Notes under the pieces: model-generated | Seen by the model: the letters and a program-made list of their open reading frames with translations, nothing else | Database searches by the model: none | What the model was told of the DNA's origin: nothing | In this document: positions 7,147 through 32,433 of the stretch, piece by piece | How positions within the stretch are numbered: the first letter of the stretch is position 1 | Layout of the letters: each line of letters begins with the position of its first letter | DNA from: a virus | Taxonomy: Duplodnaviria > Caudoviricetes | Direction: 5' to 3' (one strand) | IMG/VR virus record: IMGVR_UViG_3300010327_000802 | Location: 1-64,000 of that record | Length of the DNA stretch: 64,000 nucleotides | Made by a program: the position numbers and the translations under genes

Positions 7147-7779
7147 TTAAATAACCTCTCCCCCTCTTGAAACTCCCTTAAAATCAGCCGAGGGGGCGGT
7201 TTCGTCATGTATCTTTTTTAGATCTTTCAATATTTTTTCCTCTTCAGGGGTCTTTCCCCGTATCGCTTCTATTGTGGTTTGTGCTGGCATAGAGTTACCT
7301 AAATCTAACATTCTTTCATAGATTGTCTTATTCTTTTTAATAATACTCATTACCTTTTCTAATTCTTCATCTGTTACATCTCCAGAAAAAGCTTTAATAC
7401 TACCTGAAACCAGAAGAGATCTAAGACCTCTAGACCCTAATAAACTTTTCTTAATTTCATCCGGAAGAGAAGATAGAGATAATATTGCTCTAGGTTGTAA
7501 TGAATACCCAGCAGCATCAGGTAGAATAATAATTTTATCAGTCATATTCACTAATATTTCTATATCCTCCGCATCAATTTCGGATTTAGCTAGTTGATTA
7601 ATTATTTCAGCGGTATCACCTTCAACAACAATCGAACCAGCTCGCTTTACTAGATCTACTATATTTGTTACTTCTTTTTTAATTTCTTCTTTTATCTGAG
7701 TCTCCTCAGCTAAGGCTTTATCTTGATTATATTTTACTTTCTTTTCCTTGTTTAAGTTTTTTTTATCTTCATTATCCAT
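7147..7779 (-). CDS. Hypothetical virion-associated protein after MCP
   Basis: AGGAGG RBS, 210 aa, charged N-terminus. Confidence 0.75.
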   Translation of the reverse strand: MDNEDKKNLNKEKKVKYNQDKALAEETQIKEEIKKEVTNIVDLVKRAGSIVVEGDTAEIINQLAKSEIDAEDIEILVNMTDKIIILPDAAGYSLQPRAILSLSSLPDEIKKSLLGSRGLRSLLVSGSIKAFSGDVTDEELEKVMSIIKKNKTIYERMLDLGNSMPAQTTIEAIRGKTPEEEKILKDLKKIHDETAPSADFKGVSRGGEVI

Positions 7780-7802
7780 AATTACCTCCTATATATTTTT
7801 TT

Positions 7803-7830
7803 GGGGGGGGAGTTAATTATCCTCCCCCCC
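7803..7830. other. G/C-run stem-loop after the MCP gene
   Basis: GGGGGGGAG/CTCCCCCCC stem; followed by an A-tract rather than a U-tract on the coding strand. Confidence 0.6.
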
Positions 7831-7845
7831 TCTGTTTAGTTTTTA

Positions 7846-8850
7846 TTATACAGCACCAATGTTAAACTTCATTTTTACTACGGATCTGGGGTTCCATAAT
7901 GAGACCCCAAGCATCTCCCAACCAACAAATCCAACCTGGAAATCGTCGAGGTTGTTTGATGCATATATTTCACTGTCTGCCCAGAAGGGCATAACCCCTA
8001 CAAATTGTGGATGGGCGGTGGCATAGGCGGACGACACATAATCTGAAGTTGATTTAACTACAGGCACTAGACGTGAAATAAACATATTTGCACCAAATAT
8101 CTGCCCAAGATAACCAGTCTGGCGGATTTCGATTCGTGCAACTTCATCTACGTTAGTATTACTCCAACTCCTAAGGTCAGCAATAGCATGTGGGTTAACC
8201 ACAATAGAATACCCAACTAAATTGTGCTTCTCTATTTGTTCGAATGCTTTAGCAACAGCAGGAAGAGTAAAGCCTGTAGTTGCATCAATTTCCGGGTTAA
8301 CTACATTAGCGGTTCCTTCAAGAGCATTAAAAACTATTAAGTCTTCTTTTATTCCAAAAGAAGTTCTTAGACGCTCCTTTGCTCTTTCTAGTACATTATA
8401 CTTACGCCATCTCATTTCTCTCAAAGGTACCTTGGCAACAACGCCAATTTCAAACGAATCTATAAAGATACGTTCTGCCTTTAGATATAGAATTCTAGTA
8501 GCACCATCCCTTGCAATAGAAATTGCAGGGAACATCTCCAAATCAAGATCGTAGTATGCAATTTCCCCTTCATTTTTCTGTTCTACAAAGAGAAGTTGAC
8601 GTCCAATTGGATAGATATCCAAATAACGCCTTACGGGCTCTTGTAAAGCTTGTGCAAGCTTTTGGAGTCCATACTGTGAGGAAAAAGCTTTCTCAAGAAG
8701 TGCTTCTCTTTTTAACTCTTCTTCCTTTGTAAGGGTTGCCTTTTTAGTCATAGTATCTTTTGAACTTTTGTCCCCATCCACAACAATTGTCTGAGGAAGA
8801 CCTGAGGGTCTCCCATTATCTGATGGATTAGATATAAATATTCTTGGCAT
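7846..8850 (-). CDS. Major capsid protein (HK97 fold, resembles Bxz1/cluster C-type MCP)
   Basis: GLQKLAQALQEPVRRYLDIYPIGRQLL...EIAYYDLD...FEIGVVAKV...IKEDLIVFNAL...GFVGWEMLGVSLWNPRSV pattern; 334 aa; follows the decoration protein. Confidence 0.9.
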   Translation of the reverse strand: MPRIFISNPSDNGRPSGLPQTIVVDGDKSSKDTMTKKATLTKEEELKREALLEKAFSSQYGLQKLAQALQEPVRRYLDIYPIGRQLLFVEQKNEGEIAYYDLDLEMFPAISIARDGATRILYLKAERIFIDSFEIGVVAKVPLREMRWRKYNVLERAKERLRTSFGIKEDLIVFNALEGTANVVNPEIDATTGFTLPAVAKAFEQIEKHNLVGYSIVVNPHAIADLRSWSNTNVDEVARIEIRQTGYLGQIFGANMFISRLVPVVKSTSDYVSSAYATAHPQFVGVMPFWADSEIYASNNLDDFQVGFVGWEMLGVSLWNPRSVVKMKFNIGAV

Positions 8851-8863
8851 ACTTTATCCCTCC

Positions 8864-9483: not shown

Positions 9484-9493
9484 TTTACCTCCT

Positions 9494-10699
9494 TTATACG
9501 ATTTCTCTTAAATCGTGCACAACTCCATCATCATCTACAAGCAGCTGAGCATCTTCTGGCATATTTTCAAGAATTTCAGAAAGAGCTTTTAAATTTTTCT
9601 CATCGTAAGTAGCATATACTTTTCTATATTGATTTTTTAACTCTACTGGTATTATTTCTTTTGCTATTAGTTGGTCTACTAAATTTTCTACCAATATAGA
9701 AGAAGTTTTCTTTTTGTCCTCTTTAAAAGTTTCTCTCCCAAAGACAGTCTCCCCTTTAGAATCTAGCCCTTTTGGAAGATCCTCTCTACCGAAAATCCTC
9801 TCATCTTTCTTTCCGCCGACATCTTCTCTTCCTATTGTTGGTTTCTCCTTTGACATAAACCTCTTAAGGGGTCTTAAGGTCCTTGTTGGAATATCATAGG
9901 TGTAATATTCAGGGGGTTCTTCCGTAGATTTTACTTCAATAGAAGCTTCCTTAGGATCAATAACTAAACTAGCAGTAACAGGTAAACTTGTAACTTTATC
10001 ATTAAAAGTAAATGTAAGTGAAACCCTTCCTGTAGCTTTATCAATTGAAATAGTTTCAACAGATATGTTTTCAAAAGGAGCACCAACTAAATCAGAAACA
10101 GACTTTAATACAGCATTTACAGAAATCTCTCCAGATTCTTGGGGGACAGTTTCTGTTGGTTGCTGCACCTCTTGTGGGGTCTCAGATACTACTTCATTAA
10201 CGTTCATAGTATCCTGGGTATTGCCCACCCCTCCTGGATTAATTTCTATATTTTCAACTCTGTCTGGTCGTTCCATACCTTCCTCCGCAGTCTTTGCCAA
10301 AAATTCTGTGGCTTTTTCTTTAATAGAAGACACCTTTTTTAGTAAGGCATCAAGCTTTTTTTCTATATTTAACTTCTCATCTTTAGAGAAGTCTTTCTCA
10401 AGTTTCGTATTTAATTTTCTATTCATTACATTTTTTCCTCCTTTATTAAGAGACCAATCCTCGTCATATTTAACATTACCTCCTCTCCTAACTTTTTGAA
10501 GATACCTCTTAGTACAACTACATCCTTCTTTTGATTTAACATAAGGTTGTGAATATCTCTTAAGTGGATTATATCGAGGAGAGGATTTATGTCTTTTGTA
10601 AGTTTCTTCAAAATCATCAGCTAAACTTAGTATCTCTTTCTTAGCATCAATAACCTTTTCGACACTTTTTAAAAATTTACTTAAATAATCCTTTGCCAT
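9494..10699 (-). CDS. Putative scaffold/prohead core protein
   Basis: Start reassigned to the ATG after AAGGAGG (MAKDYLSKF); highly charged; KTAE and KEAS motifs; helical C-terminus typical of scaffolds placed before decoration/MCP genes. Confidence 0.6.
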   Translation of the reverse strand: MAKDYLSKFLKSVEKVIDAKKEILSLADDFEETYKRHKSSPRYNPLKRYSQPYVKSKEGCSCTKRYLQKVRRGGNVKYDEDWSLNKGGKNVMNRKLNTKLEKDFSKDEKLNIEKKLDALLKKVSSIKEKATEFLAKTAEEGMERPDRVENIEINPGGVGNTQDTMNVNEVVSETPQEVQQPTETVPQESGEISVNAVLKSVSDLVGAPFENISVETISIDKATGRVSLTFTFNDKVTSLPVTASLVIDPKEASIEVKSTEEPPEYYTYDIPTRTLRPLKRFMSKEKPTIGREDVGGKKDERIFGREDLPKGLDSKGETVFGRETFKEDKKKTSSILVENLVDQLIAKEIIPVELKNQYRKVYATYDEKNLKALSEILENMPEDAQLLVDDDGVVHDLREIV

Positions 10700-10709
10700 A
10701 AAATCCTCC

Positions 10710-13187
10710 TTACTGGGAATAGTTCCCAGAAATAAACCCCTCACAAAAGCTATCTAAGTCCGTTATTCCACTATTTTGTAGAATCTCTTTGCATCTTTCC
10801 TTTGCTGAGACTTTATTTTCTTTTGGGATATCTTTCATCCCTTCATTAAGCCTCTTTTTTACTTCCTCAGGTATAGGCGTTTGAGCATTTGTATCTGTAG
10901 TGGGAGGAGTAGGGGGTTGATTAGGATTTGTTACTGTTGAGGGAGTAGGCTGTGTTTCATCTTGGGCTTTCTTTCTTATAGAAGCTCTAGGGGCTTCTCT
11001 AACATTAAAGGAGACATTTTTCCCTCCAGAAGTAGGGCTAAAAGTAACTTGTTTAGATACTGGAGTGGATGGTACTTGTTTTCTTTTCTGTTCTTTACTT
11101 AGTATATTGGTCAATTCCCTTTTGTACCCCTTTTCTACTATTTCCTCAGGAAGAGGAAGATTTTTTAAGTAACTACTTCTCCATCCAGGCCCTTCGACCC
11201 TATCCCTCAAATTAATACAGAATTTTACAGGGTTGATTACTCTGCCGAACATTTTTAAAGTACATCCTCTGATTGGATCTTCAGGGTCGTCTTTCGATAA
11301 AGTGCTCCAGTATTTCTTCACACTTTCCTCAGTCCATCCCTTAGGTAGTCTTTCAAAAATAGAATATTTAACACTACCTTTCTTAAGTGGTCTTTTAACC
11401 AATGCTCTTGTAACCCTCTCTATACCCCCAACTTTATGTAAATAGCGCTTAAGACTAGCCAGCTTCTTTTCAATCTTACGGAGTGCTTCTATGTAAACCT
11501 CTTTTCTATTTTTCCCTATTTCAATTAAAGATTCAGGGGGAAGTGTAGTTTCAGTATAAGATGCATATCTCAGTCCTCTGGAAAGATCTAATATATCCTT
11601 ATAAGTATACCAGTAGCTAGAGAAAAATACCTCTCCCTTTTTGTCATATGTTATTGGGCTTAAAACAAATGCTCCTACTTTTTCAAAATTAAGATTTAAT
11701 GGTTTATGTATATCTAAAGAAGCAAATAGAACTTCTGCTGGCAAATAGATAAAATCCATTCCAGCAAAAGATAAACTAGACATTAGACTTTTTACATATT
11801 CGTCATCAGGTACAAATCTTACATAATCAGAAATAAACGTATCAATATAGTTATCTTCATCAATTGAAGAATGCTTTATTTTAGACAAATTATCCATATA
11901 CTTTTCTAAATCACTACCAAACTCATACAGTAGCTTTCCAATATTTCTATGCTTATAACTACTAACTGCCGATTCTTTAATAAGATAACCAAGATTCTTA
12001 AAACTGGAGGCAACTTTATAGTTTAATTCCGAAGAGGATTTAATATTCTTAATTTCATTAATTATTTCTTCACCCTTATCTGATTTTTTAGCTAAAGTTT
12101 CTATGTCTTTAACTGCTTTATCTATGCTATCTAAAGAAGAAATAGAATCAAAATAACCCTTTTGAGAAATCTTATCTCCAAGACCCTTCACAGATTTCTT
12201 AAAATATTCATAGGTAGGCTTTATTACTTTATAATAATCAATCGTATTGTTTGCTAATTTTGCAAAAACATAAGAAGCTAAATAGATAGAATCTGGGGTG
12301 TAATAAAATCTAAATGGAAATTCATTATAAGAAGAAATTTTCTTTATATTTGGTTTCTTAAAGACATGTATCGAGCTTTCTTTAGGTAAAGAGCCCTCTG
12401 GAGGAGTAGATTGATCTGTGGTTTGTTTCTGCGTTTGTATAGTAGAAGCGGGTTGATTTGAAGTTTGCTTTTGTTCCCGCACATCAGTCTTACTAGGAGT
12501 ACAAGTTCTACTAGTACAACCTTCAGAAGTAGCAAAATAAATCTCTCTCCCACCAAATGCAGAAGCCGCTGAACCACTAGGTAGTTTGGTTACTAAAAAG
12601 TTCATTCCACGCTCAAATGGAATAAGCATATTATCCCCAAAAGGAGTACCTTCCGGGAAAAAATAAGCAAGATACTCTAAAATTCCATCTGGTTTATCCT
12701 TTGTTTTCCTATATGATTCTATTAAAAAACCACCATGTGAAAAAATCCACTTATATCTAGTTTTCTTGCCTTCCTCTACAATACTTTTTCTATTGCCTGA
12801 GTATAAATGCCAAAAGTCTTTAACTTTTCCCTTTACTTCCTCTTTTTCTGTAATAAGTAACATTTCACCTGGATTTCCCTTTACAAGGATAAATGGAGAT
12901 TCTACAGGAGTGGGTAATCCGCACTCCGCCTCAAGGGATTCAGCCTCAACTCTCGCAGTGGCATTAAAGGGAGGAAACCCCACCCCACTAGGCATAATGT
13001 ATTTACAAACGTGAGATAAGCTAGGGTACGAAAGTCTATAAAAATCGTTTTCATTTTCAACTTTATTAGCAGCAAACTTCACATTTTCTATCTTAGATAG
13101 AAAATTATCTAGAGAATATATTAGCCTTTCAGCCTTATCTTTCTCTCTTCTAATTGAATTTATTAAATTGCCTATGGCTACTCTCAT
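10710..13187 (-). CDS. Large putative internal head/core protein
   Basis: 825 aa; KFAA, KVAS, RYAS, KLAS, KKAQ motifs; Q/T/P linkers; GC..KM...NP.KFC Cys-pair module. Confidence 0.6.
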   Translation of the reverse strand: MRVAIGNLINSIRREKDKAERLIYSLDNFLSKIENVKFAANKVENENDFYRLSYPSLSHVCKYIMPSGVGFPPFNATARVEAESLEAECGLPTPVESPFILVKGNPGEMLLITEKEEVKGKVKDFWHLYSGNRKSIVEEGKKTRYKWIFSHGGFLIESYRKTKDKPDGILEYLAYFFPEGTPFGDNMLIPFERGMNFLVTKLPSGSAASAFGGREIYFATSEGCTSRTCTPSKTDVREQKQTSNQPASTIQTQKQTTDQSTPPEGSLPKESSIHVFKKPNIKKISSYNEFPFRFYYTPDSIYLASYVFAKLANNTIDYYKVIKPTYEYFKKSVKGLGDKISQKGYFDSISSLDSIDKAVKDIETLAKKSDKGEEIINEIKNIKSSSELNYKVASSFKNLGYLIKESAVSSYKHRNIGKLLYEFGSDLEKYMDNLSKIKHSSIDEDNYIDTFISDYVRFVPDDEYVKSLMSSLSFAGMDFIYLPAEVLFASLDIHKPLNLNFEKVGAFVLSPITYDKKGEVFFSSYWYTYKDILDLSRGLRYASYTETTLPPESLIEIGKNRKEVYIEALRKIEKKLASLKRYLHKVGGIERVTRALVKRPLKKGSVKYSIFERLPKGWTEESVKKYWSTLSKDDPEDPIRGCTLKMFGRVINPVKFCINLRDRVEGPGWRSSYLKNLPLPEEIVEKGYKRELTNILSKEQKRKQVPSTPVSKQVTFSPTSGGKNVSFNVREAPRASIRKKAQDETQPTPSTVTNPNQPPTPPTTDTNAQTPIPEEVKKRLNEGMKDIPKENKVSAKERCKEILQNSGITDLDSFCEGFISGNYSQ

Positions 13188-13668
13188 TTTTCCTCCTTAT
13201 ATATCTAAACTTCTCATCTTCATCAACAAAATATTCTGTGTCTTCATCTTCAATTTCATCCTCATCTTTATATTTCTTGAAAAATAAATTTTTCTCTTCA
13301 TCTATATCGGCAAAAATACCACCCTCTAAAACTTCTTCTGAAAGATCATACACAAACGTTTCAATACCCATAATTATTTCATGTAATATATCTTCTTCTC
13401 CATCGGGTAGGGTTTTATCCTCAACAGATAATTCTTCTAAAATATCAACAAGTAAATTATAACAATAAAGTAAGTTAGAAACTCTGTCAGCTAGAGACCA
13501 AGTGTCCCACTCATAAAACAATATAGTAAAATGAGCTACTAAAGCATTAAACTTATCTATGTCCTTATCAACAGGCTTTCTTTGTTCAACATTTAATTTT
13601 TCCTTGAGAAGATCTATCTTTTTTCCCACTTCTCTTATAATTTCTTTATCAATATTTTTTTCTAACAT
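13150..13668 (-). CDS. Hypothetical acidic head-cluster protein
   Basis: 172-aa ORF in the operon with overlapping neighbours. Confidence 0.75.
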   Translation of the reverse strand: MLEKNIDKEIIREVGKKIDLLKEKLNVEQRKPVDKDIDKFNALVAHFTILFYEWDTWSLADRVSNLLYCYNLLVDILEELSVEDKTLPDGEEDILHEIIMGIETFVYDLSEEVLEGGIFADIDEEKNLFFKKYKDEDEIEDEDTEYFVDEDEKFRYIRRKNESSHRQFNKFN

Positions 13669-14047
13669 GTAAAATATCCTCCTTGTCTGAAACTATCTTT
13701 TTTAATTCAACCTCAAAAAGTTCTCCGCTTGAACCATATTCTAATTGTGGAAACCAAGCTACCTTTTCAACAGTATCTTTATATGCAGATTTAATGGGTC
13801 CCTCCATTGGGACTAAGGGTAAATAGTTCTTTTTATTATCATTAAAGTTTTTCTTATAATCTTCATAATATCTTTGATAATAATTTGACACCTTAATATA
13901 GCTTTTTATACAAGGGTCATTCTCAATACACTCATTTATTTTTTTAGAAAGCTCTTCATTTTTAGAAGCTGTTTTTACAAAACTACTCCATTTCATTTTG
14001 GAAAAGTATTTCTTCCAAACATAAGATAGTAAATCAAAGTTTGTCAT
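13649..14047 (-). CDS. Hypothetical head-cluster protein
   Basis: AGGAGG RBS; KTAS motif near the N-terminus. Confidence 0.75.
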   Translation of the reverse strand: MTNFDLLSYVWKKYFSKMKWSSFVKTASKNEELSKKINECIENDPCIKSYIKVSNYYQRYYEDYKKNFNDNKKNYLPLVPMEGPIKSAYKDTVEKVAWFPQLEYGSSGELFEVELKKIVSDKEDILHVRKKY

Positions 14048-14094
14048 ATCTCCTCCTATATATAATTAGACTAATAATTTCTTTTAACATAACC

Positions 14095-15231
14095 TCATAT
14101 AGTTTCATCTTTTATAGTCTTCATACAGATATATTTCTTAACAGAGTCTTCTATGGTATACCCTAAATTACTTAATTTATAAATATAATTAAATGAAGAA
14201 GTCCTTATTATATTAAGTTTCTTTAAAGCCTCTATAAGTTCTTCATCAGGGACAGCTGTAAGTAAATTTTCTCTATCAGATACTATAATAGTAGGTTCAG
14301 AAAGTTGCTGTTCTTTCCACTTTAACTCTTTCAGTCTGTTTTTAACAACAGATGAAAGGTCCTCTGGAAACAAAATATTAGTTTCTCTCGAAGATTCTTC
14401 CTCTTGGGGCTTCCCTATTTCGATTCGATCATATGGTGTTTTTTCATATTCTTGAGATTGAGGGTTTCTAAACTTATCACCAAGTGGTTCTACAGCTGAT
14501 TTATTAAAAGAAGCAGTTAATATCTCAAGCATCTTAGCATTTCTATCTGCACCTCTTCCACCAGCCAACCCACGAAGATTGAGTGGACGAATAATAGAGT
14601 CTTCGAAAAAGTCTACTCCATAACAAATTTCAAAAGAAAGCTTTTCTTCCCCAGAAGCAGTTTTAATCTTTTTCATTTTATACACAGCTATGTGTTCACA
14701 GTACTCACTTTCCACAGAAGCTTTCTTCCCACAAATACTACAAATAGAATATTGGACAATAGATCCCATTGAAGTATCAGTAACTTCTCCATTAACAATA
14801 TAATTAACAAGATTTTTATCATACTTTGCAGCAAGTTTCTTATCAATTGCCAATAGATTTTGAATATAATGTCCTGAAAGAGGATCATTTGGATATTGCT
14901 GAGGAACATACCTGCTGTCAAGTACAACTCCAATAATCATATCTGGGCGGTGATCAATGGTAACTCTTTTTCCTATAAAAGTGGAATAGGATTTTTTCAA
15001 CTCTTCATCTGGGAATCCGTCTCCATTATCATTTGGACCAAAAAATTCATAAGCAGAAACAGAATGATTTCTAAGATAAAGATATCTGGCGGGATCAAGC
15101 GTTATTCTCTTAAAACTTGGAATTGCAGAAGCAAACTTTTTAAGTCCAGGTTGATCGGAAAATAAATCTTTCATTTCTCCAACTTCTGATACCTTACTCA
15201 AGCCTAACCAGTACCCAGTTTTTACTAGCAT
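14095..15231 (-). CDS. Prohead maturation protease (HK97/assemblin-like serine protease with Zn finger)
   Basis: PNDNGDGF, TIDH (His), TSMG (Ser), CSICG...CEH, FFEDSI motifs; lies between portal and MCP. Confidence 0.8.
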   Translation of the reverse strand: MLVKTGYWLGLSKVSEVGEMKDLFSDQPGLKKFASAIPSFKRITLDPARYLYLRNHSVSAYEFFGPNDNGDGFPDEELKKSYSTFIGKRVTIDHRPDMIIGVVLDSRYVPQQYPNDPLSGHYIQNLLAIDKKLAAKYDKNLVNYIVNGEVTDTSMGSIVQYSICSICGKKASVESEYCEHIAVYKMKKIKTASGEEKLSFEICYGVDFFEDSIIRPLNLRGLAGGRGADRNAKMLEILTASFNKSAVEPLGDKFRNPQSQEYEKTPYDRIEIGKPQEEESSRETNILFPEDLSSVVKNRLKELKWKEQQLSEPTIIVSDRENLLTAVPDEELIEALKKLNIIRTSSFNYIYKLSNLGYTIEDSVKKYICMKTIKDETI

Positions 15232-15233
15232 TT

Positions 15234-16424
15234 TTATCCTCCTTTAGTTATCTTTGAAAGTTTTTGGCGTATAAGCTTTGATAGAGAATTGTAACTTTTT
15301 TCCGAAGACTGTTTGACTTCTCCAGCTGACGGGGTAGAAGGGGCAGAAGGGGCAGAAGTAGGAGGTGAAGGAGCATTTGTCTCAGACGTAGGAGTAACCT
15401 CAGTTTGAGTACTTGTTGGTTCTTGTGATGGAGTAAAATGTGTATGTTTATCTGTAGAAAAGCTCTGGTTGCCCATCTCTAAAGTTTCTCCTTCACTTCC
15501 ACTTGGTTCTTCCCATTCTTCTTTTAATTCCTCATCTGTTTCTTGAATAATTCCTGAGGGGAGATATATATAGGTATATTTATTAGGAGTGTTCTTTACA
15601 AATATCATTACAGAGGAAAAAGATGGAAAGTCTAATTTTAATAATTTTCTTTTTGTTTCAATAGAAATTGGAGAAAGAACAACATCCCCTCTACTATTCT
15701 TTGCCTTAATTTCTACCCTAAATAGAATAGTTGAGAAATTAGAAGATATAAACGTATCTTCAATATATATATTATCTTCTAATTCTTCTATAATATTTTT
15801 AGGCAAGTCTCCTGGAATACTAACAGTCCCTACAATAGTGGAAGTAACTTTTGCTTCCTTTAAATATTCTATTGCTTTACTAAACTTTTTTGAAAAATCT
15901 CGTAATATAGTACTTATACCCAATTCTCTTATCTCTGGGGAAACAGCTGCAATCTCATCTGCAATAATATTAAATATAGCCCTCTTAGTTGCTTTGTCCT
16001 TCGTCATTAAAAATTGAGTAAGAAAATTATTAATTAGAGCAACCCTAATTATATCATCTTTATATCTTTCGGCTTTCTTCAGAATCTCTTTACTTTTTTC
16101 AAATTTATGAGATAAAGAAGATATATCTTCAATAATCGTATCTTCAAACAGATTTTCTTTCAACATTTCTTTTGCAGTCTTAACTAAATTTTCAGCAGTG
16201 GAATGAAACTTATCTGATAGAATAGTCCTTACTATTTCTACAAAAGAAGAATCTGGGATAAAATCAGAAGAAAGTGAATTTATAGAAGCATTTTTTCCTT
16301 TAAATTCCTCAGAAACAGCAAAAACTAGAAAATCTTTTTCAATTCCTAAAAATAAAGGAGCTAATGATAGAGACGAAAAATGTTTAGCTGCAAAAGGATA
16401 ATCTCGGCAATGTATTATTCTCAT
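15234..16424 (-). CDS. Putative prohead core protein
   Basis: KNAS and KTAK motifs; P/S/T-rich C-terminal linker. Confidence 0.65.
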   Translation of the reverse strand: MRIIHCRDYPFAAKHFSSLSLAPLFLGIEKDFLVFAVSEEFKGKNASINSLSSDFIPDSSFVEIVRTILSDKFHSTAENLVKTAKEMLKENLFEDTIIEDISSLSHKFEKSKEILKKAERYKDDIIRVALINNFLTQFLMTKDKATKRAIFNIIADEIAAVSPEIRELGISTILRDFSKKFSKAIEYLKEAKVTSTIVGTVSIPGDLPKNIIEELEDNIYIEDTFISSNFSTILFRVEIKAKNSRGDVVLSPISIETKRKLLKLDFPSFSSVMIFVKNTPNKYTYIYLPSGIIQETDEELKEEWEEPSGSEGETLEMGNQSFSTDKHTHFTPSQEPTSTQTEVTPTSETNAPSPPTSAPSAPSTPSAGEVKQSSEKSYNSLSKLIRQKLSKITKGG

Positions 16425-16626: not shown

Positions 16627-17847
16627 CTATTCTTCAACTCTTTCCAAATATGCTGTACCGTCTTCATCAAGAACAACTCTCCAAAATGTAGTCGAAGAGT
16701 CTTTCAAGTCAGACCTTATCTTCCTTCTGATTTTAACTTTTCTGTTGCCCTCCTCTATATCAGAGAGAACAAGCTTTCCGTAAAGACTTTCTACCTTAGT
16801 CAAAAACTGATTATCAACAGTTGCTTCCACTTTACCAATACCCTCTATTTCATATTCTTTTACATCTAAAATATCCGCAAGTCTATCTAGAAGTGCACCT
16901 TTAATTACTATATTATTTTCTTCATCAACACTTAAAGTTTCTATTGAATTAAGAAAGATGTCACCTTTATTGAAACGCACACTGTAGTTGTATGAAGCGG
17001 TGTCCTTGTCCTCTATACCTAGTGGAATCACTTCTAGATTATACTCTTTTGGGTCTAACCCCCATTCATTTAATTTAGATGCATATACCGAACAAACAAA
17101 AGAAGCTAATTTTACTTCTCTATCTCCTTCTGGATCGTATACATAATTAATTTCTTCTAATTCAGGTATAGATTTCTCAATCATCTCATCAACTTCTTTT
17201 TTATACCTTTCAGTCGATTTTAATTCCTTTCTCCTTTTGTCAATTTGTTTAGAGAGTTGACTAATAGCATCAAGTGAAGAAGCCCCAGTTAAAAAATCCA
17301 CCCAATTAGCATTATCTTCATCGTAAACAACGTTCTTTGATTTTTCCGTGCCAGCCATTCCATAAACAATTGAAGAGGAAACTTTGTTCTTGTATTCTTG
17401 CCCTACAGTAAAATTATGAATAAACTGGTAGGGATTTTGTAGAACAACATTGTCACTTGTTTTGTATGGGTATTTAATTGAGGATGCTACCTTTTTTACA
17501 GCAGAATCATAGGATATAGAAATCACCTTATATTTTCCATCAATAACGTACTCTGTAACTCCAGCTTCCTTAAGAAGATCGGTTAATTTTTCTTTATCAT
17601 AGGAATACATTTTCATCACAGTACCAAATATATTCTTAGATTTTGAAGAGCGAACAATTTTTAACTCTTGGTCTATTGGTAATTGCAATGTAACAAAATT
17701 TTCAGTTGGGTTCCCAGCCGAAAATTTTCTGAGTTTTATAATGACATTATTAGACTTTTCATCAAAGTCTACATCTATATCTTCTTCCCTAAAACCATAC
17801 CCCGATAGTATGGTAATAAAGTGTTCTCTTATTTCGTTATCCTGCAT
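16627..17847 (-). CDS. Putative prohead core protein
   Basis: AAGGAGG RBS; KVAS and KLAS motifs. Confidence 0.65.
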   Translation of the reverse strand: MQDNEIREHFITILSGYGFREEDIDVDFDEKSNNVIIKLRKFSAGNPTENFVTLQLPIDQELKIVRSSKSKNIFGTVMKMYSYDKEKLTDLLKEAGVTEYVIDGKYKVISISYDSAVKKVASSIKYPYKTSDNVVLQNPYQFIHNFTVGQEYKNKVSSSIVYGMAGTEKSKNVVYDEDNANWVDFLTGASSLDAISQLSKQIDKRRKELKSTERYKKEVDEMIEKSIPELEEINYVYDPEGDREVKLASFVCSVYASKLNEWGLDPKEYNLEVIPLGIEDKDTASYNYSVRFNKGDIFLNSIETLSVDEENNIVIKGALLDRLADILDVKEYEIEGIGKVEATVDNQFLTKVESLYGKLVLSDIEEGNRKVKIRRKIRSDLKDSSTTFWRVVLDEDGTAYLERVEE

Positions 17848-21387: not shown

Positions 21388-22311
21388 CTAACCTCCTTTA
21401 ATCACTTCTTTTAACAATTGGGATATAACCTTAGGGTCTATTGAGGATTGTTTGCGTATATTGTTTAATATGGATAAAGCATTCTCCCCAGATAATTTAA
21501 GAAAAGTAGCTATATCACTTACTGGAATATTACCTTTCTCAAGCAGCTTAGTAACTATTAATTGAGCTACATAAGGATCAGTTAATACTTCTTTAAGAAT
21601 ATTTACCATATCAATAGACAAAGTATTTTCATTCTCTTTCATTTGATATCCTTCTTGCCCCATGAAAGCTTTCTCTTGTTCTGATATAGGTCTAAAACTC
21701 ATAGGTCTTAAAACTTCCAGCTCTGTACCAAGAATACTATCATCTGCAATTTCTGGGTAAGGCTTAGAGTCCCATTTTACAATATACATTTTAGAGGATC
21801 GAGCAATATCTATAACAACACCACGTTCTTTATTGTTTTTATTATAAACAAAATCCCCTATTGCAAATCTAGGAAATGGCTTTAATTCCTCTGTTTCAAT
21901 CTCAGTACCTTTAGAAGGAACAACCATTTGTGGAGAAAGTTGAGTTGGAATGGGTGGGATATCTGCCTCTTTAACTTTAGAAGCTCTACTTATCGGATTA
22001 AAAGAATTGTTTAATTCACCAAATTTAAACTTAGCTGGAACATACTTAGTATCTTCCCCCTCCAATGTTTCTACAATAGAAGCCTTAGAAATGAGATGTT
22101 CTGTAGGGCTATCTAATATTGGAGTTTCTTCCTCATCGAAAAGATCTACTAAATTATCTATATCTTTATTTTCTTCTTTCTCTAAAGAGGCAATTTTTTC
22201 AAAAATATCTAATTTAGGATAAAATTCTGCCTCTTTTTCATCATATAAACTTTCAAAAGCCTCCTGAAGAAGCTTCCAGTCTCGAAGTTCTTCTTCTTTC
22301 CTATTCGGCAT
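21388..22311 (-). CDS. Putative head core protein with SH3/Tudor-like domain
   Basis: KIAS and KEAD motifs; FAIGDFV...RGVVI...YIVKWD pattern. Confidence 0.6.
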   Translation of the reverse strand: MPNRKEEELRDWKLLQEAFESLYDEKEAEFYPKLDIFEKIASLEKEENKDIDNLVDLFDEEETPILDSPTEHLISKASIVETLEGEDTKYVPAKFKFGELNNSFNPISRASKVKEADIPPIPTQLSPQMVVPSKGTEIETEELKPFPRFAIGDFVYNKNNKERGVVIDIARSSKMYIVKWDSKPYPEIADDSILGTELEVLRPMSFRPISEQEKAFMGQEGYQMKENENTLSIDMVNILKEVLTDPYVAQLIVTKLLEKGNIPVSDIATFLKLSGENALSILNNIRKQSSIDPKVISQLLKEVIKGG

Positions 22312-23584: not shown

Positions 23585-23589
23585 ATCTA

Positions 23590-23621: not shown

Positions 23622-23627
23622 CAATGT

Positions 23628-24311
23628 TCACTCTTTACCATCAAACGTAGAAACGTCCTTCGTCTGAGGTGTTTCTTCCTTATTACCCAACTCTTCTCTA
23701 ATATAATTTATCTCCGCTGCGGAGAAAAACTCACTTGGGTTCATAGCTACTTTTTCTAGGAAAGCTTCAAACGGAAATATTCTAGACATCAATAATAAAT
23801 TTCTATTAATTCCTTCTGGACAGGACATCATTAGATATTGTGATACTTCATACCAAAACTCTTCTGTTTTCGTTTTAGCAAGCAGCCTTTCTTTTAATTC
23901 TTCCTCTGTTAATTTAGACTCTTCTAACGAGTCCTCTTGGTATTCTCTAACAATTCTATCCACAAAACGGCTTGCAATAGTTTCAACTGCTTCTTCTATA
24001 GCCTCTCCAAAAAATCCCTCTAGCTCTTGAATCCACATATTGAGATCTGAGGAGGGTTCATACCCAAAGAAAGGCTCCCTTTCTCTGTTAGAAATAGCAT
24101 AACATAAATCGTATGCCCTTTCTACAAGAAATAGATTATACTTATAGTATAGAAAAAGCTCTAATTCAGTATTTCTTTCTATTAGATTAACTAATTCATC
24201 ATAAGAAAGCGAAGAAGTTTTCGAGGTCCCTAAGGCTGAAAGCTTTTCTATAACACGTTCCAATTTATTCTGTATTTTAATAAATCTATTAGGTAGTCTC
24301 TTATTTCTCAT
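23628..24311 (-). CDS. Hypothetical head-cluster protein
   Basis: 227-aa acidic ORF overlapping its upstream neighbour. Confidence 0.7.
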   Translation of the reverse strand: MRNKRLPNRFIKIQNKLERVIEKLSALGTSKTSSLSYDELVNLIERNTELELFLYYKYNLFLVERAYDLCYAISNREREPFFGYEPSSDLNMWIQELEGFFGEAIEEAVETIASRFVDRIVREYQEDSLEESKLTEEELKERLLAKTKTEEFWYEVSQYLMMSCPEGINRNLLLMSRIFPFEAFLEKVAMNPSEFFSAAEINYIREELGNKEETPQTKDVSTFDGKE

Positions 24312-25926
24312 CTTTTTTCTCCCGATAAGGAGATTTCCTTCTATTTCTATTTCTGTTAAATAGCTCTTTACGTATGTCCTTACGCTCTTTCCCTATTAAA
24401 TCGTTTTCCTTCCCATTTTCTTCGTCCTCTTCCTCTTCCTTTTCCTTTTCTCCCTCGTCTTCTTCCTCTTCCTTTTCCTTTTCTCCCTCGTCCTCTTCTT
24501 CATCCTCTTCCTTTTCTTCCTCGTCTTCTTCCTTCTCTTCCTCGTATTCCTTTTCTACCTCGTCCTCTTCTTCCTTTTCCTTTTCTTCCTCGTCTTCTTC
24601 TTTCTCTTCCTCTTCCTCGTCTTCTGTGTCTATAAATACCTCAATTTCCCCAATACTGTCGGTTTCATCTTCCGTCTCTTCCTCTTCTTTCTTAATACGA
24701 GAAAAATCAATACGCTTATCCTCAACAGACTTTGTTATAATATCTGTAATAGTATCAAGTGTTTCCTCTATTGCCGAAGCCATCTCTTCAAATTTTGATA
24801 AAAAGTCCTCTATAATCTTCTGCATACTTGTATCAAGTACAGCCTCTCTTCTTTGTAGGGACGCATAGGCAGGAGCGGTAAGTCTCCTTTCATACCTTTC
24901 TTCTACTTCCTCTTCTTCCTCTTCCTCAAATTCTACCCCTTTAATTTCAGCATACTCTAATATCTCTATATTATAATCATCTATAAGATCTTTCCATATT
25001 TCAAAATAAACATCCAAAGCTCTAATTACATAGTTTATATACCTCCCGAATACCAACAAATCTCTCAAATAAGGTGAAGCATATTTTGAAAAATGTTTAT
25101 AGGAACTAAGCTTTCTAACTTCGACATAATTTAAAACACTCTTTGCTATATCTGCGAGACAATCGATTAATCTTTCTACCTCTTTTGAGGAAGAAGAACT
25201 AATTATAGATCCAGTCTCAAACCCAATTAACACTTCCTTACAATTTTCAATAATCTCCCTACCAATCTTACCCTTCCCTAAAGCTACTTCCTCTAGGGCT
25301 TCTCTAATTAAGGCTCTAAACTTACGTGCCTGCCTAGAGTTTCCGGCGGAAGAAGCTAACTTCTCAGCAATAGCGTAAACTATATTATAAATACCAGACT
25401 TAGGTATTCCCCCACCATAACTATATACAGATACTTGTAGTTTTCTTTTATCCCCTTTGGGATGGATAACATAAATCTTGTCATCAATTAGTTCAACCTC
25501 TTCAGCCAAATTGTAAAGACTATTTATAGCTTTATCAAGTTCTATTTTTACCTTTTTAGTCAAAGCTTCCATTTCCTCTTTTGTTTCTCTAGCTTCGGGG
25601 TTTGTCGCATAAAACTTTTCGGTAAGTTTTTCCATACGATTGGTTAAATCTGCAATCCTTTTTTGTATTTCATCCTTTTCTTTAATAAAATTATATATAG
25701 CATTAAAGTACTCTTTCGCCTCACCCTCAACTGTGATTTCTTTTATAGTTTCTCCAAGAGGAACAACTGGCTTAGTTAAACGGGGTCTTTCCTCTGTTCT
25801 ATCCAGAAATTCCTTTTTACTTTCAGGAGATACAATTTTTTTCTTGATATCATCAACATCGGCTATTTTGCGGATTATCCTATCCGCATTCTTTTTTTCT
25901 CTCAGAAAGTCTTCAAATCTACTCAT
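24301..25926 (-). CDS. Putative prohead core protein with coiled coil and poly-Glu/Asp tail
   Basis: KIAD, KLAS, KYAS motifs; about 90-aa E/D/K low-complexity C-terminal region. Confidence 0.7.
   Translation of the reverse strand: MSRFEDFLREKKNADRIIRKIADVDDIKKKIVSPESKKEFLDRTEERPRLTKPVVPLGETIKEITVEGEAKEYFNAIYNFIKEKDEIQKRIADLTNRMEKLTEKFYATNPEARETKEEMEALTKKVKIELDKAINSLYNLAEEVELIDDKIYVIHPKGDKRKLQVSVYSYGGGIPKSGIYNIVYAIAEKLASSAGNSRQARKFRALIREALEEVALGKGKIGREIIENCKEVLIGFETGSIISSSSSKEVERLIDCLADIAKSVLNYVEVRKLSSYKHFSKYASPYLRDLLVFGRYINYVIRALDVYFEIWKDLIDDYNIEILEYAEIKGVEFEEEEEEEVEERYERRLTAPAYASLQRREAVLDTSMQKIIEDFLSKFEEMASAIEETLDTITDIITKSVEDKRIDFSRIKKEEEETEDETDSIGEIEVFIDTEDEEEEEKEEDEEEKEKEEEDEVEKEYEEEKEEDEEEKEEDEEEDEGEKEKEEEEDEGEKEKEEEEDEENGKENDLIGKERKDIRKELFNRNRNRRKSPYREKKDEK
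24422..24497. repeat. 33-bp tandem repeat (about 2.3 copies) within the acidic low-complexity tail
   Basis: tcgtcctcttcctcttccttttccttttctccc at 24422 and 24455 (1 mismatch), partial at 24488; encodes EDEGEKEKEEE units. Confidence 0.85.
25073..25100. repeat. Dispersed 28-bp direct repeat, copy 1 (copy 2 at 32024-32051)
   Basis: ggtgaagcatattttgaaaaatgtttat; encodes KHFSKYASP. Confidence 0.95.
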
Positions 25927-25928
25927 TT

Positions 25929-27215
25929 TTACACCTCCCTAGTGCCATACTTTCTACGTTTTATATATGCACACATTTTCTTAGCCCGTTCAAGAGACAA
26001 GTTCTTTTCACTCATAAAATATCTAACACACCCACAGAACTTGGACTTTTTTTCTGGAGCATCTGGACAAGTCATTTCTTTAAATGACCCCTTTTCTGTT
26101 TGATACTTTTTGTTCTTTGGTTTAGCGGCTGTTTTTTCTAAATCAGCAAAATTTGTTAAAATATCAGCTGCTTTTGAAAATGAATTAGTTGCATTAATAA
26201 AATAATCATATACCTTGTTAGAAAGGTCTTCTATAAGATTTTTGTAATAATTAACCTTAGTAGAAGCAATTTTTGTAGAACCTATACTTTGATCTTCCAA
26301 GATAGAAGATGCAAGGTCAACTAAATCAAGCACTAGAAGTAGACCCTCTCTACCTACAGAAGAAGCTGCTTTTGATAAGAAATCAGCTGCTTTTTCTATA
26401 GAATAAATTCTCTCTTCATATTCCCCTAATCCTTCTGATTCCTCTACCTCTTCTGCTTCATACAAATCTCCGTACATTTCTCCCAACTCCTCTATTCTTT
26501 TAATAAAAGAAAAGTATCTTTCTTTCGCAACTTCTCTAGCCTCTTCGTATTCATCCTCTGTATAAAAATCAATTATTTCTAGACCAGAAAAATCACAAAA
26601 GGCTACAATATTACCACGCATTCCTTTAATTTTCTTTATTTCTTCATCCGTAAATCCGAAATCTTCATCTTTAGCAAGATAAACTATTTCATCATCAATT
26701 ATTATATACTTAACTGGATGTAAATCATCTGAAATAGAGTAGAGGTCTTCATAACACTCTGAGCTTTCATCTTCTTCAGCACACAAATCTTCTATCCTTC
26801 TCCATTCGGAATCAGAAATAAATTCTAAATAGATGTCGGACTCTTCCTCAGGTTCAATATTTTCAGTTTCTAATATAACTTCAAGGAAATCTTCAAACTT
26901 TGTTTTAAATCCGAGTTTTACTCTAGAAAGTGAACTAAGCTTTTTAGAGTCTATTTTATACCCCCTTCTTTTAAGCTCTCTTATTAACGGAGCCCTATTT
27001 ACTTCACTAACTTTCTTTTCCTTGAAAAATCTATCTAGCTTTTCCGTAATATTAGACCCCTTTTTAGGATTCTTAGCCCACTTAATAAAATTATCAGCAT
27101 GGGTTGAGGGAGATACTTCTCCACTCTCTTTTTCTTTCTTAGCCACTTCGCCAGTTTTACCACCTTGCTTTAATAGATTTTCAAGGTGGGAAAATAATGC
27201 TTCGATATTACCCAT
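25929..27215 (-). CDS. Putative prohead core protein, acidic centre and C-terminal Cys module
   Basis: KAAD, KAAS, KIAS, KTAA motifs; KFCGCVRYFM...AKKMCAYI. Confidence 0.65.
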   Translation of the reverse strand: MGNIEALFSHLENLLKQGGKTGEVAKKEKESGEVSPSTHADNFIKWAKNPKKGSNITEKLDRFFKEKKVSEVNRAPLIRELKRRGYKIDSKKLSSLSRVKLGFKTKFEDFLEVILETENIEPEEESDIYLEFISDSEWRRIEDLCAEEDESSECYEDLYSISDDLHPVKYIIIDDEIVYLAKDEDFGFTDEEIKKIKGMRGNIVAFCDFSGLEIIDFYTEDEYEEAREVAKERYFSFIKRIEELGEMYGDLYEAEEVEESEGLGEYEERIYSIEKAADFLSKAASSVGREGLLLVLDLVDLASSILEDQSIGSTKIASTKVNYYKNLIEDLSNKVYDYFINATNSFSKAADILTNFADLEKTAAKPKNKKYQTEKGSFKEMTCPDAPEKKSKFCGCVRYFMSEKNLSLERAKKMCAYIKRRKYGTREV

Positions 27216-27217
27216 AG

Positions 27218-28036: not shown

Positions 28037-28037
28037 A

Positions 28038-28669: not shown

Positions 28670-28671
28670 AT

Positions 28672-29505: not shown

Positions 29506-29513
29506 ATTTCCTC

Positions 29514-31058
29514 CTAAATTACAAAACAAATATCTCCATCTTCTCCAACATCAGAAGATGGAACCTCTGGTAATATATAAATTCTATAGCCAAAGGTTAA
29601 ACCATTTTCCCCCTCACTTACCAAAACGGATCTGTTTGATTTACCAGTATAACTGTTTGGTGTATCTTTAATATTCAAAAAGCTATCTAACTTACTCGCT
29701 TTCAATTTATTATTATATACTATTATAGTATCCGCATCAATTTTATTTCCAAGGTAATCTGCTATATCATTCGCATCTATTTTCACTTTACCATCGGAAA
29801 CACCACCTGTTGTTGGAAGTGGGTATGCCCCATAAACTCCATCTTCATTTGTACCTAGATAATAATTTTTACCAAGTACGCAAGTCAAATCACGATAAGA
29901 ATGCACATGTGGTGGAACTGTAGACAAATCTGGTTTATTGATAATAATATCCCAATCTACACTTTTTACATATATTTTATGTGTAGTAGTATTAACCCCA
30001 AGAGTAATATTGTCTATTTTGTCGGTAAGAAACCCTACTACAGTATCCTGTGTATCAGCATAGACTTTACCATAATTTTTTACAAAAACTTTATGAAGAG
30101 TAGTATTAACCCCAAGGGTAACATTATCTACTTTATCTATTATAAAACCACGAATAGGATCTAAACTATCTGCATAAACTTTGCCATCTGAAATATTATT
30201 AGAAACAAAATTTAGTTGAACAAAGTAGAGTATACCGTCTCCAGGCAACTCATCATAAAATTGAAGACTTCCTTCATCTATAGGTGAATAATCAAACTCT
30301 TCAACAAGAATCTGGTTGTTAAGACTAATTAAAATAATCTTAGATGCAACTAAACCTTCAGGTAAAGTTAATATCCCATTTTGGATATTTAAGGTATTTA
30401 CTACATAATAAGCTTTGTATAGTGGTTCTTCTTCGTTATAAGGAGTAGGGCTGGTTTCTAAAATATTAAACCCACCACCACTGCTACTAAGGTATTCAGA
30501 ACAAAAGATAGCATTCAAATCCAATTCAAGCTGATTCCAAATAACAGATAAAGTAGGACCTAAACAACTAGCAATAATCGATTTGAATAAAGAAGAACCC
30601 AGCACCGCCCTCAAACTTATAAGCGTGCTTATAACCTGACGTGTCATACTCCCTTCTACATCTCTTAGAGGATCTATATCTGCACCTTCTTGGTAAACAA
30701 ATTCCCAATCTTGAAATGGATAGTGCTCTTTATAAAGATCATAAATTGAATCCAAATCATCAATTAGTGGTTGTAAAACTTCATTATACTTTGCTAAATC
30801 CTCTTCATTTTCTCCATAACTAATTAAATGTAATATATTTAAAAGTAATTTTAATCTAAAAGCATACTCTCTAGAAAAAACAATCCTAAAAATCCTTTCA
30901 TATAAAGTCTGTTCAGAATCACCTAATAGAAAGTTAACAATGCTGTCTTCCCCCTCATCAACTTCTCCCTCTATAAGTGAAAGTGGGGTAAATAGTTGAG
31001 ATATAATTGTTTCAACAACATCTTGTGGGTTAGATAAGTGAATTGGGCAGTCAAACAT
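29514..31058 (-). CDS. Putative fibre/virion structural protein with internal 38-aa repeats
   Basis: GKVYAD..D...GF..DK.DN.TLGVNTT.HK repeated with 114-bp period; FLNIKDTPNSYTG fibre motif. Confidence 0.6.
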   Translation of the reverse strand: MFDCPIHLSNPQDVVETIISQLFTPLSLIEGEVDEGEDSIVNFLLGDSEQTLYERIFRIVFSREYAFRLKLLLNILHLISYGENEEDLAKYNEVLQPLIDDLDSIYDLYKEHYPFQDWEFVYQEGADIDPLRDVEGSMTRQVISTLISLRAVLGSSLFKSIIASCLGPTLSVIWNQLELDLNAIFCSEYLSSSGGGFNILETSPTPYNEEEPLYKAYYVVNTLNIQNGILTLPEGLVASKIILISLNNQILVEEFDYSPIDEGSLQFYDELPGDGILYFVQLNFVSNNISDGKVYADSLDPIRGFIIDKVDNVTLGVNTTLHKVFVKNYGKVYADTQDTVVGFLTDKIDNITLGVNTTTHKIYVKSVDWDIIINKPDLSTVPPHVHSYRDLTCVLGKNYYLGTNEDGVYGAYPLPTTGGVSDGKVKIDANDIADYLGNKIDADTIIVYNNKLKASKLDSFLNIKDTPNSYTGKSNRSVLVSEGENGLTFGYRIYILPEVPSSDVGEDGDICFVI

Positions 31059-31068
31059 ATTTTATTAC

Positions 31069-32433
31069 TTATTCCTCAAAAACAGTCAAATATCTTTTGG
31101 ATGAAATATAGCCCAACTCAAAAAGATCATGAATATAGTCAAAGACTTTTAGCCCAATATCTATACGATAATACCCATTTGGGATTATAATATCCTCAAT
31201 ATTTTCGTATGCCTTATCTATAGATCCCTGCAAAGTTTGATCCATTCCAACCGCCACAAAAACCCTAGAGTGAGTAGGAACAGAACGAATATACCCCTTG
31301 TCGTCTTTATATATTCCAGCCGGTATATGTTTATACAGATAATCAGGGTTTTTAACTCGAATAATAACATTATCCCCAGAAGTAGGGGAAGATAAGTTAT
31401 CTACATTTGCACAAACTCCTGTCAGCCAATCAGGTGAAATATCTATCCGTTTCATTATTCCTTTAGTTACATCATAAAATATCTTTCCAAGCGGTGTTTT
31501 TATTGCTGGTAACATTATAGATATATGTGGATACCCAAATCTTGATGTATGCTCTAAATAATAAGGTTTTCCATCTTTATAAGAAACAATGGCGTTTATA
31601 TCCACATAGCCAATTCCATAATTCTCCTTATACCACTTTTCATATTTACCAAACATAATTTCAAAAAGATTGTCCACATCACTATTATCCTTATTAAAAA
31701 TAACTGTTCCCATTTCACCAGTCATTTTACCAAGCTCTCCAGGAAATAACCGTTTATGCTCAAAATTCATATTCCAAGGCATAACAAAGCCATCAGGTCC
31801 TACAAAAACTCCCATTGCTACTTCAATACCATCCACATAATCTGTTACAAGAATTTCAGTAGAATCATCAATCCCCTTTTCTTTCAGGTTTTCTAAATGA
31901 ATAACCGCATCTTCATTATCAACAGAAACATAAGTTTTTATACTTGAATCCCCAATTTTATTTAGCTTGATAACAGGTCGATTGAACTCTTCTTCCTCTA
32001 TATCCTTTATAGCTTCAATAATTGGTGAAGCATATTTTGAAAGATGTTTATTTGAATAGACTTTAGATTTTGGGAAATATTCATATATGCCTGCTTCCTT
32101 TGCATACCCTCTATCATTTTCAAGCCTTGTGCCTTTTTCAGATGCTCCCCAAACTAACTTGCCTTCCTCTCTTAACTTATCTGCAGCTTCCCCCCAGAAA
32201 ACATCTGTGAAAATAATTACATCTACGTCATCAACATATTTTTCATAGTTTTCAACAAATTTAACTCCAGCCTCCTCAAGAAATCCCTTTCCGTAAAGAA
32301 TATCAGATTGCTCCGGGGTGCTTCTTTGCCAAGAAACGTAATAATAAACTTTTTCTCCCTCTTCCGCCAATCTATAGGCTATAGATTCAGCTAATCCAGT
32401 GTCAACTATTAGGTATTTCATTTGTGGGTACAC
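31069..32433 (-). CDS. PurD (GAR synthetase)-like ATP-grasp ligase
   Basis: WGASEKGTRLENDR, RPVIK, DYVDGIEV, EHKRLFPGELGKMTGEMG, LEHTSRFGYP, RVFVAVG, YYRIDIG align by eye with PurD motifs along the full length. Confidence 0.8.
   Translation of the reverse strand: MYPQMKYLIVDTGLAESIAYRLAEEGEKVYYYVSWQRSTPEQSDILYGKGFLEEAGVKFVENYEKYVDDVDVIIFTDVFWGEAADKLREEGKLVWGASEKGTRLENDRGYAKEAGIYEYFPKSKVYSNKHLSKYASPIIEAIKDIEEEEFNRPVIKLNKIGDSSIKTYVSVDNEDAVIHLENLKEKGIDDSTEILVTDYVDGIEVAMGVFVGPDGFVMPWNMNFEHKRLFPGELGKMTGEMGTVIFNKDNSDVDNLFEIMFGKYEKWYKENYGIGYVDINAIVSYKDGKPYYLEHTSRFGYPHISIMLPAIKTPLGKIFYDVTKGIMKRIDISPDWLTGVCANVDNLSSPTSGDNVIIRVKNPDYLYKHIPAGIYKDDKGYIRSVPTHSRVFVAVGMDQTLQGSIDKAYENIEDIIIPNGYYRIDIGLKVFDYIHDLFELGYISSKRYLTVFEE
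32024..32051. repeat. Dispersed 28-bp direct repeat, copy 2
   Basis: ggtgaagcatattttgaaagatgtttat; 27/28 identical to 25073-25100; encodes KHLSKYASP. Confidence 0.95.

Follow-up and report, generated by a model that had tools for sequence, protein, structure and literature searches.

In a window of 64 kb (the first 64 kb of one 73.2-kb phage contig, GC content ~33%), the proteins of the head module are marked by a short peptide motif with K-x-A-S at its core. We consider it probable that this motif, whose wider form is hydrophobic-x-K-x-(A/S)↓(S/A/T), marks the bonds that the phage's own prohead protease, a serine protease encoded at 14095..15231, cuts (arrows mark bonds cut or predicted to be cut; Lys stands at P3, Ala at P1 and Ser at P1'). 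Practically all genes of the window lie on the minus strand, as do all its features given below, and 75 minus-strand open reading frames (ORFs) were translated. Genes were placed by PHROG and Pfam matches, and the protease gene (378 residues; phrog_18299, E 7e-17) was found within the head module, with the portal gene on one side and the major capsid protein (MCP) gene on the other, an order that is kept in relatives and in Bacillus phage G. In the proposed mechanism, the protease would trim itself at A34↓S35, would probably also cut itself behind the catalytic domain, at A240↓S241, and near S345↓S346, and would remove a 38-residue propeptide from the MCP to leave T39 as the mature start. Roughly ten scaffold-like proteins or internal components of the head, whose genes lie between those for terminase and capsid, would lose N-terminal propeptides (residues ~20-50) to the enzyme and be cut at internal sites as well. 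To our knowledge, the cleavage rules of prohead proteases are known experimentally for only a handful of phages, and those of the large myoviruses all end in Glu; the rule proposed here, with Lys at P3 and a cut between Ala and Ser, is a different one and can be read from the sequence alone.

Enrichment of K-x-A-S in head-module proteins

Eleven ORFs between 9494 and 32433 together hold 17 exact copies of K-x-A-S; this count and the individual tetrapeptides had been proposed in a sequence-only reading of this DNA and were confirmed by translating all 75 ORFs. Composition predicts 2.28 occurrences in the 7578 residues of the head region (Poisson p 4e-10), and in 2000 shuffles within proteins the count never exceeded 9. 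The rest of the window, 13,270 residues, holds two occurrences against 3.6 expected: KDAS in an SNF2 protein, the only one that the sequence-only reading had noted for the replication arm, and KLAS338 in a Rad50/SbcC-like ORF (51746..53314), which had been overlooked. With this correction, the proposed enrichment of head over non-head proteins stands. An unbiased scan of six gap patterns and 8000 residue triplets (~48,000 gapped three-residue motifs) returned K-x-A-S as the top motif once low-complexity Glu runs were set aside (Bonferroni-corrected ~2e-5), and the motif therefore survives correction for its post hoc choice. The motifs of the Glu-specific phage proteases were not enriched in the head region, neither the T4-type [LI]-x-E (145 versus 125 expected) nor the phiKZ-type [SAG]-x-E (121 versus 138) or A-x-E (34 versus 35).

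At the DNA level, 17 of the 18 coding-strand matches to the pattern AAR-NNN-GCN-(TCN/AGY) are in frame and the other strand has four matches; at least six codon pairs are used at the K-x-A-S sites, roughly at the genome's own codon preferences. Because of this frame specificity and codon variety, a repeated nucleotide motif was rejected as the cause and the signal was assigned to the protein level. The flanks of the window sites are unrelated to each other. Two KYAS sites, K281 of the ORF at 24301..25926 and K133 of an ATP-grasp ORF, lie in a shared 28-nt stretch (27/28 identical, at ~25073-25100 and ~32024-32051) that encodes H-(F/L)-S-K-Y-A-S-P and thus includes the full hydrophobic-x-K-x-A-S; the number of independent sites is therefore 16.

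The tetrapeptide proved to be the core of a wider motif. In pooled head modules, Lys was the most enriched residue at P3 (59 versus 11.9 expected), with Val second (25 versus 10.6) and then Arg; at P1 Ala ranked first (59 versus 11.9), followed by Ser; at P1' Ser was followed by Gln, Ala and Glu; and P2 was mostly Thr, Ile, Val or Leu. The P5 position was occupied by Leu, Ile, Val, Met or Phe in 95 of 182 pooled K-x-A-S sites (52%, against a background of 28%; p 7e-12), as expected of an extended substrate-binding groove. In the window, hydrophobic-x-K-x-A was found 27 times in head proteins (9.2 expected) and 12 times elsewhere (14.9 expected), and [VLI]-x-A-S nine times (6 expected). A motif definition extending K-x-A-S by the hydrophobic P5, by Arg or Val as occasional P3 residues, by Ala or Ser at P1 and by Ser, Ala, Thr or Gln at P1' thus describes the sites better. 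Residues 21-50 hold more sites than chance predicts (13 of 55, against an expected 9.1%; p 0.001), in keeping with N-terminal propeptides, and in five window proteins the first site falls at residues 25-44.

Metagenomes yielded homologues of the protease with 44-51% identity, carried by contigs as long as 83 kb or, for more distant ones, 170 kb. With the motif fixed beforehand, ~20 kb around the protease were analysed in six distinct relatives from the 44-51% identity range. Observed over expected K-x-A-S counts were 8/2.0, 7/2.0, 6/2.0, 5/1.7, 9/2.2 and 11/2.0 (pooled 46 versus 11.9, p 4e-14), while each of the five other orderings of K, A and S occurred 7-14 times, equal to expectation. In one relative (L009) K-x-A-S was again the top of the unbiased motif scan; L001/L002 favour K-x-S-S (14 versus 2.8 expected); and the tail genes downstream of the MCP in L003 and L004 contain no strict or loose site.

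A single-protein search of IMG/VR with the protease returned no relatives. A profile search with the protease alignment retrieved 39 further loci with GC contents of 25-66%, in which K-x-A-S occurred 222 times against 73.3 expected (p 2e-44); the motif ranked first of 8000 motifs of the form a-x-b-c in L026, L027, L031, L034, L036/37 and L045. In locus L018 the top motif is R-x-A-S (16 versus 1.7 expected), usually as K-R-x-A-S, and the N-terminal site of the L018 protease itself reads R-T-A-S; the P3 residue therefore co-varies between the enzyme and its neighbours. In phage G, gp11-gp27 contain six K-x-A-S against 1.4 expected.

Several repeat-rich proteins were noted in these loci. V-x-E-Q (L035/L044) and A-x-E-W (L012) were considered as alternative codes and rejected, since both arise from tandem repeats. 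In L012 (8293-9429), two small ORFs directly upstream of the protease are together made up of eight copies of a ~26-residue repeat with the pattern G-F-(T/S)-P-x-x-A-x-E-W. Plus-strand ORFs of L004 (an 83-kb contig) repeat an S-L-T-L-R-N unit ~20 times, with T-L-x-R found 21 times against 1.9 expected. In L018 (5042-7792), a 916-residue protein encoded upstream of the protease has eight K-R-x-A-S sites at intervals of ~60-120 residues, all with a similar (A/G)-S-K context in front. From its sequence, this protein looks like a polyprotein, with small domains strung between predicted cutting sites.

Predicted sites in the protease and the major capsid protein

The AlphaFold2 model of the protease is confident over residues 50-240 (predicted local distance difference test, pLDDT, >94), with a strand at 233-239, and drops below 50 from residue 244. 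Along the chain, a predicted N-terminal propeptide is followed by the catalytic domain (~46-240), then by a disordered linker (244-288) and, at the C-terminus, by a helical region (292-377). Structural alignment of the model with VIA-align gave Z 9.9 to the varicella-zoster virus (VZV) protease (root mean square deviation 2.5, 118 residues aligned) and Z 9.8 to T4 gp21 (5jbl; root mean square deviation 3.1, 131 aligned); the top 37 rows of the comparison were all herpesvirus assemblins or gp21, the next row having Z 5.4, and Foldseek assigned this fold a probability of 0.96-1.0. The modelled structure thus points to the assemblin/gp21 fold (MEROPS clan SH: S21, S77, S78, S80). Relatives of the protease in the PDB came to light only through the fold comparison; a profile search of the PDB sequences gave none. 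H94, S154 and H180 are invariant in 35 protease homologues, and their spacings of 60 and 26 residues resemble those of H63, S132 and H157 in the human cytomegalovirus (HCMV) enzyme. C164, C167, C178 and H180 are likewise invariant and form a CxxC...CxH knuckle inserted in the catalytic domain (residues 164-180); H180 may be the third catalytic residue or a metal ligand together with the three cysteines.

Sites are found on both sides of the catalytic domain. K32-F-A-S35 (15127..15138), with Leu at P5, is the predicted N-terminal self-processing site. About 30 of 34 homologues, with identities as low as 35%, have [KR]-x-A-[ST] at this aligned position a little upstream of the catalytic domain, as do the IMG/VR relatives. 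The tetrapeptide varies among KFAS, KLAS, KVAS, KIAS, KYAS, KTAS, R-V-A-S and R-L-A-S, so that x and the flanks change around a constant frame; the deepest protease group, including gp19 of phage G, has K-T-A-K or K-T-A-A. L238-T-A-S241 (14509..14520), at the end of the last catalytic strand and before the disordered linker, is by analogy a candidate release site. Its column in the relatives reads [LV]-[TV]-A-[SDRG], with a hydrophobic P3 as in the herpesvirus R and M sites (PMC4498786). A conserved variant site, R343-T-S-S346 (14194..14205), lies in the C-terminal helical region and is matched in relatives by KTSS, KTSS, KKSS, K-S-G-S and (R)VTAS.

The size of the protein that carries the protease domain differs among the loci. 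The window enzyme has 378 residues, and in many relatives (L013, L016-L018, L026, L031, L033, L036, L038, L040, L043, L046-L050 and L011, the last being Catera gp94) the domain forms the N-terminus of a very long protein of 750-1760 residues.

The MCP (7846..8850; 334 residues, HK97-type; phrog_2522 major head protein, E 1e-36; homologues carry PF25209) has the variant site K36-K-A-T39 (8734..8745) with Met at P5, a predicted propeptide boundary with T39 as the mature start. In its AlphaFold2 model (mean pLDDT 88), the coil of residues 1-40 has pLDDT ≤56 throughout and helical structure starts with a helix at residues 42-57, so that the site lies three residues before the first ordered helix and cutting after A38 would take away precisely the segment that is disordered. 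In relatives the same column reads KIAS, KSAS, KKAA or KKAS, and the segment upstream of it varies in length and sequence. An exhaustive search yielded 325 MCP relatives, among them 84 representatives in which the conserved first helix is preceded by 20 or more residues; [KR]-x-A-[STA] occurs in the last 32 of these residues in 32 of the 84 (~6 expected), and [KR]-x-A-S in 17 (~1 expected). Many MCP homologues, including gp27 of phage G, have no N-terminal extension and start at window residues ~37-47.

Further motif-bearing proteins of the window

The portal protein (17923..19722; 599 residues; phrog_16240, E 2e-41) has two N-terminal variants, KTSS14 and KTAA52, which are matched in aligned columns by KRSS (L007), KRAD and KTAA and for which the evidence is weaker. 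KTAA52 had been pointed out in the sequence-only reading along with MCP K36-K-A-T39 and, in the protease, the N-terminal KFAS and LTAS238, and all of these variants were found again, with KTSS14 as an addition. In L006 (3314-7351) and L009 (1-2730) the portal genes are enlarged by intein-type insertions (Pfam Intein_splicing/Hint), and in L009 the capsid gene region (13835-15381) is interrupted by LAGLIDADG endonuclease ORFs.

Next to the portal gene, a 406-residue head protein (16627..17847) carries KVAS119, KVSS155, KLAS246 and KDSS382; the aligned columns read KVSS, KKSS and RASS at residue 155, and KLAS and KVSS at residue 246. Two proteins flank the protease, one of 396 residues with an N-terminal KNAS44 and no family match (15234..16424), the other of 132 residues with KWSS19 and KTAS25, the latter with Phe at P5 (13649..14047). 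An orphan of 825 residues (10710..13187), for which no family match was obtained and an ESM Atlas look-up gave no usable result, contains KVAS391, KLAS575, KFAA37, RYAS540 and five K-x-S-S sites. The 416-residue protein encoded upstream of the decoration-like and MCP genes (9494..10744) has KVSS137, KEAS265 and KTSS346 and is, judging from its gene position, probably scaffold-like. Its orthologues in L003, L004 and L006 keep aligned sites (KVSS/KRSS/KKAA and KTSS/KKAT/KVAS), and the L006 orthologue (11574..13259) has eight strict or loose sites.

Upstream of the portal, a 397-residue protein (19731..20924) carries KIAS136 with Val at P5, a site that is not conserved in L001 or L003, and a 307-residue protein (21388..22311) carries KQSS287 and an N-terminal KIAS39 with Phe at P5; orthologues of the latter protein have a K-x-A-S close by in a different column. 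Two orphan proteins are candidate head components, one of 541 residues (24301..25926) with KLAS189, KLSS272 and KYAS281, for which family searches and an ESM Atlas look-up again gave no match and no usable result, the other of 428 residues (25929..27215) with KLSS92, KAAS282, KIAS315 and KTAA361. A Pfam scan of the head proteins produced no match except for the PurD-like ATP-grasp enzyme (31069..32433; GARS_A, E 3e-8, and GARS_C). The single site of this enzyme, KYAS133, had been counted as a mark of head cargo; it lies in the copied 28-nt cassette and so provides no independent evidence, and the enzyme is probably outside the system or at most recruited via the cassette. The proposal of about 15 proteins forming an ejection cargo was overstated as well, for ten non-enzyme ORFs carry the exact motif and several of these are probably scaffold, portal-associated or self-processing proteins.

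Other genes placed by family matches include the large terminase (32729..34621) and the tail sheath (2017..3933). The replication arm is of bacterial type, with PolA, DnaB, RecA and gp32. One MCP homologue (P0043, on the 45-kb relative L003) is labelled in NCBI as belonging to a Nitrososphaeria archaeon metagenome-assembled genome. An archaeal host was rejected on account of the bacterial type of the window's replication genes, and the label is therefore probably a binning artefact.

Weighing of the proposed code and comparison with known maturation proteases

The claim that the enzyme at 14095..15231 cuts after K-x-A is strongly supported by the replicated enrichment, the positional conservation, the joint change of Lys and Arg at P3 and the assemblin-type fold; from these we infer that the motif is cut at all, that the bond lies between Ala and Ser, and that the marked proteins reside inside the head. 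Several observations weigh against it. K-x-A-S is not enriched in L012, the closest IMG/VR relative (50% identity), nor in the K-T-A-K clade (L021-L025, L028, L042), nor in the cluster C mycobacteriophage Catera, a distant protease relative; because of Catera, the rule does not span the whole protease superfamily. Two sites of the protease, KKAS169 and KTAS190, fall inside its confidently folded catalytic domain, and KKAS169, which is not conserved as a motif, falls within the invariant Cys/His knuckle. A depletion of the motif in mature MCP bodies was sought and none was seen. The placement of the scissile bond rests on analogy and on the start positions of homologues. Finally, conservation in homologues, which the sequence-only reading had anticipated, was found at the protease and MCP N-termini and in some further columns, whereas 19731 K136, 21388 K39, 9494 K265 and many other sites are not conserved column for column; this would fit a fast turnover of sites, yet it weakens each single site.

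We think it unlikely that K-x-A-S is an uncleaved docking or targeting motif through which scaffold, portal or the inside of the capsid would load proteins into the prohead, the protease cutting elsewhere or never. Such a role would agree with the enrichment of the motif only in head-module proteins and with its preference for N-terminal regions, as in capsid-targeting sequences. However, many proteins have several sites distributed over their chains (as many as eight in the L006 orthologue of the 416-residue protein and in the 916-residue protein of L018), a pattern that looks like fragmentation rather than a single address tag. The MCP site moreover coincides with the natural N-terminus of propeptide-less homologues, in the protease the motif flanks the catalytic domain on either side, and Ala at P1 with Ser at P1' matches the rule of the structurally related assemblins.

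Somewhat less likely still, the motif may be recognised by another enzyme, either a host protease or an enzyme that modifies the Ser or the Lys. In some staphylococcal phages, capsid proteins are known to be processed by a host protease, and the link between the motif and the protease of the window comes from sequence and fold rather than from biochemistry. On the other side, the motif follows the protease family across hosts with GC contents of 25-66%, P3 changes jointly in the L018 protease and its neighbours, conservation of the motif extends to the domain boundaries of the protease itself, and family scans showed no kinase or transferase conserved in the head module. That the signal arises from chance, composition or a repeat or paralogy artefact of Lys/Ala/Ser-rich head proteins is highly improbable: the motif was chosen post hoc, head proteins are rich in Lys and Glu and 2 of the 17 sites share the copied cassette, but the shuffles, permutation controls, unbiased scan, replication in more than 40 independent loci and unrelated flanks of the sites reject this explanation.

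Beyond processing by the phage's own protease, we regard as speculative and rather unlikely a broader proposal in which the K-x-A↓S tag is a portable processing and loading signal that has moved as a short DNA cassette, and in which the Ala↓Ser rule is possibly ancestral to the fold. If the tag were portable, a metabolic-type enzyme, the PurD-like ATP-grasp protein, would have been recruited as a processed capsid passenger; if the Ala↓Ser rule were ancestral to the protease fold, the Glu rule of T4 and phiKZ would be derived from it.

The cleavage code proposed here has its closest counterparts in three groups. Among phages, the proteases of T4, phiKZ, 201phi2-1 and SPN3US all cut after Glu (PMC5694885, PMC10052503), with the rules L/I-x-E, S/A/G-x-E and A-x-E described for T4 gp21 (S77) and for phiKZ gp175 and SPN3US gp245 (S80) (PMC5694885, PMC10052503). 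The window protease shares with this group the fold and, as predicted, N-terminal propeptides with multiple sites within them and the use of one protease for the capsid protein, for itself and for internal head proteins at a short three-position motif. It differs in that Glu motifs are unenriched and the conserved positions are Lys at P3, Ala or Ser at P1 and Ser at P1'. The nearest named phage is Bacillus phage G (portal 28%, protease 35% identity), which has the same gene order (gp14 portal ... gp19 protease ... gp26 decoration ... gp27 MCP) and K-T-A-A at the aligned N-terminal site of gp19, and which differs in its 497-kb genome and in an MCP that lacks the N-terminal extension. Within the incomplete coverage of our literature search, we found no published cleavage rule for phage G and no paper in which K-x-A-S or K-x-A is given as the rule of a prohead protease.

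The herpesvirus assemblins (S21) cut after Ala and before Ser or Thr, as in YLQA↓T and VQA↓S of pseudorabies virus (PrV) (PMC4498786). The window protease resembles them in its fold (Z 8-10 to the proteases of VZV, PrV, HCMV, herpes simplex virus and Epstein-Barr virus as well as of Kaposi's sarcoma-associated herpesvirus), in a small P1 residue (Ala) followed by Ser or Thr within a P3-x-P1 frame, where cutting at this bond is a prediction for the phage enzyme, and in predicted self-processing sites that flank the catalytic domain, with a helical scaffold-like region C-terminal to it behind a linker. It differs in having Lys, sometimes Arg, at P3 instead of Val, Leu or Ile (except at LTAS238), in the added preference for a hydrophobic P5, in the absence of detectable sequence similarity, in the invariant CxxC...CxH knuckle of the catalytic domain, and in predicted substrates that go beyond the scaffold to the capsid protein and many other head proteins. 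The mechanism would thus be classical, and the recognition code with its herpesvirus-like Ala↓Ser core would be new. Such a rule, shared by a broad clade of mostly uncultured phages that extends to the cultivated megaphage G, would predict the ends of mature proteins, which should aid model building in cryo-electron microscopy and virion proteomics, and would flag orphan genes that encode processed head components. It would also link the maturation proteases of phages and herpesviruses at the sequence level, beyond their common fold.

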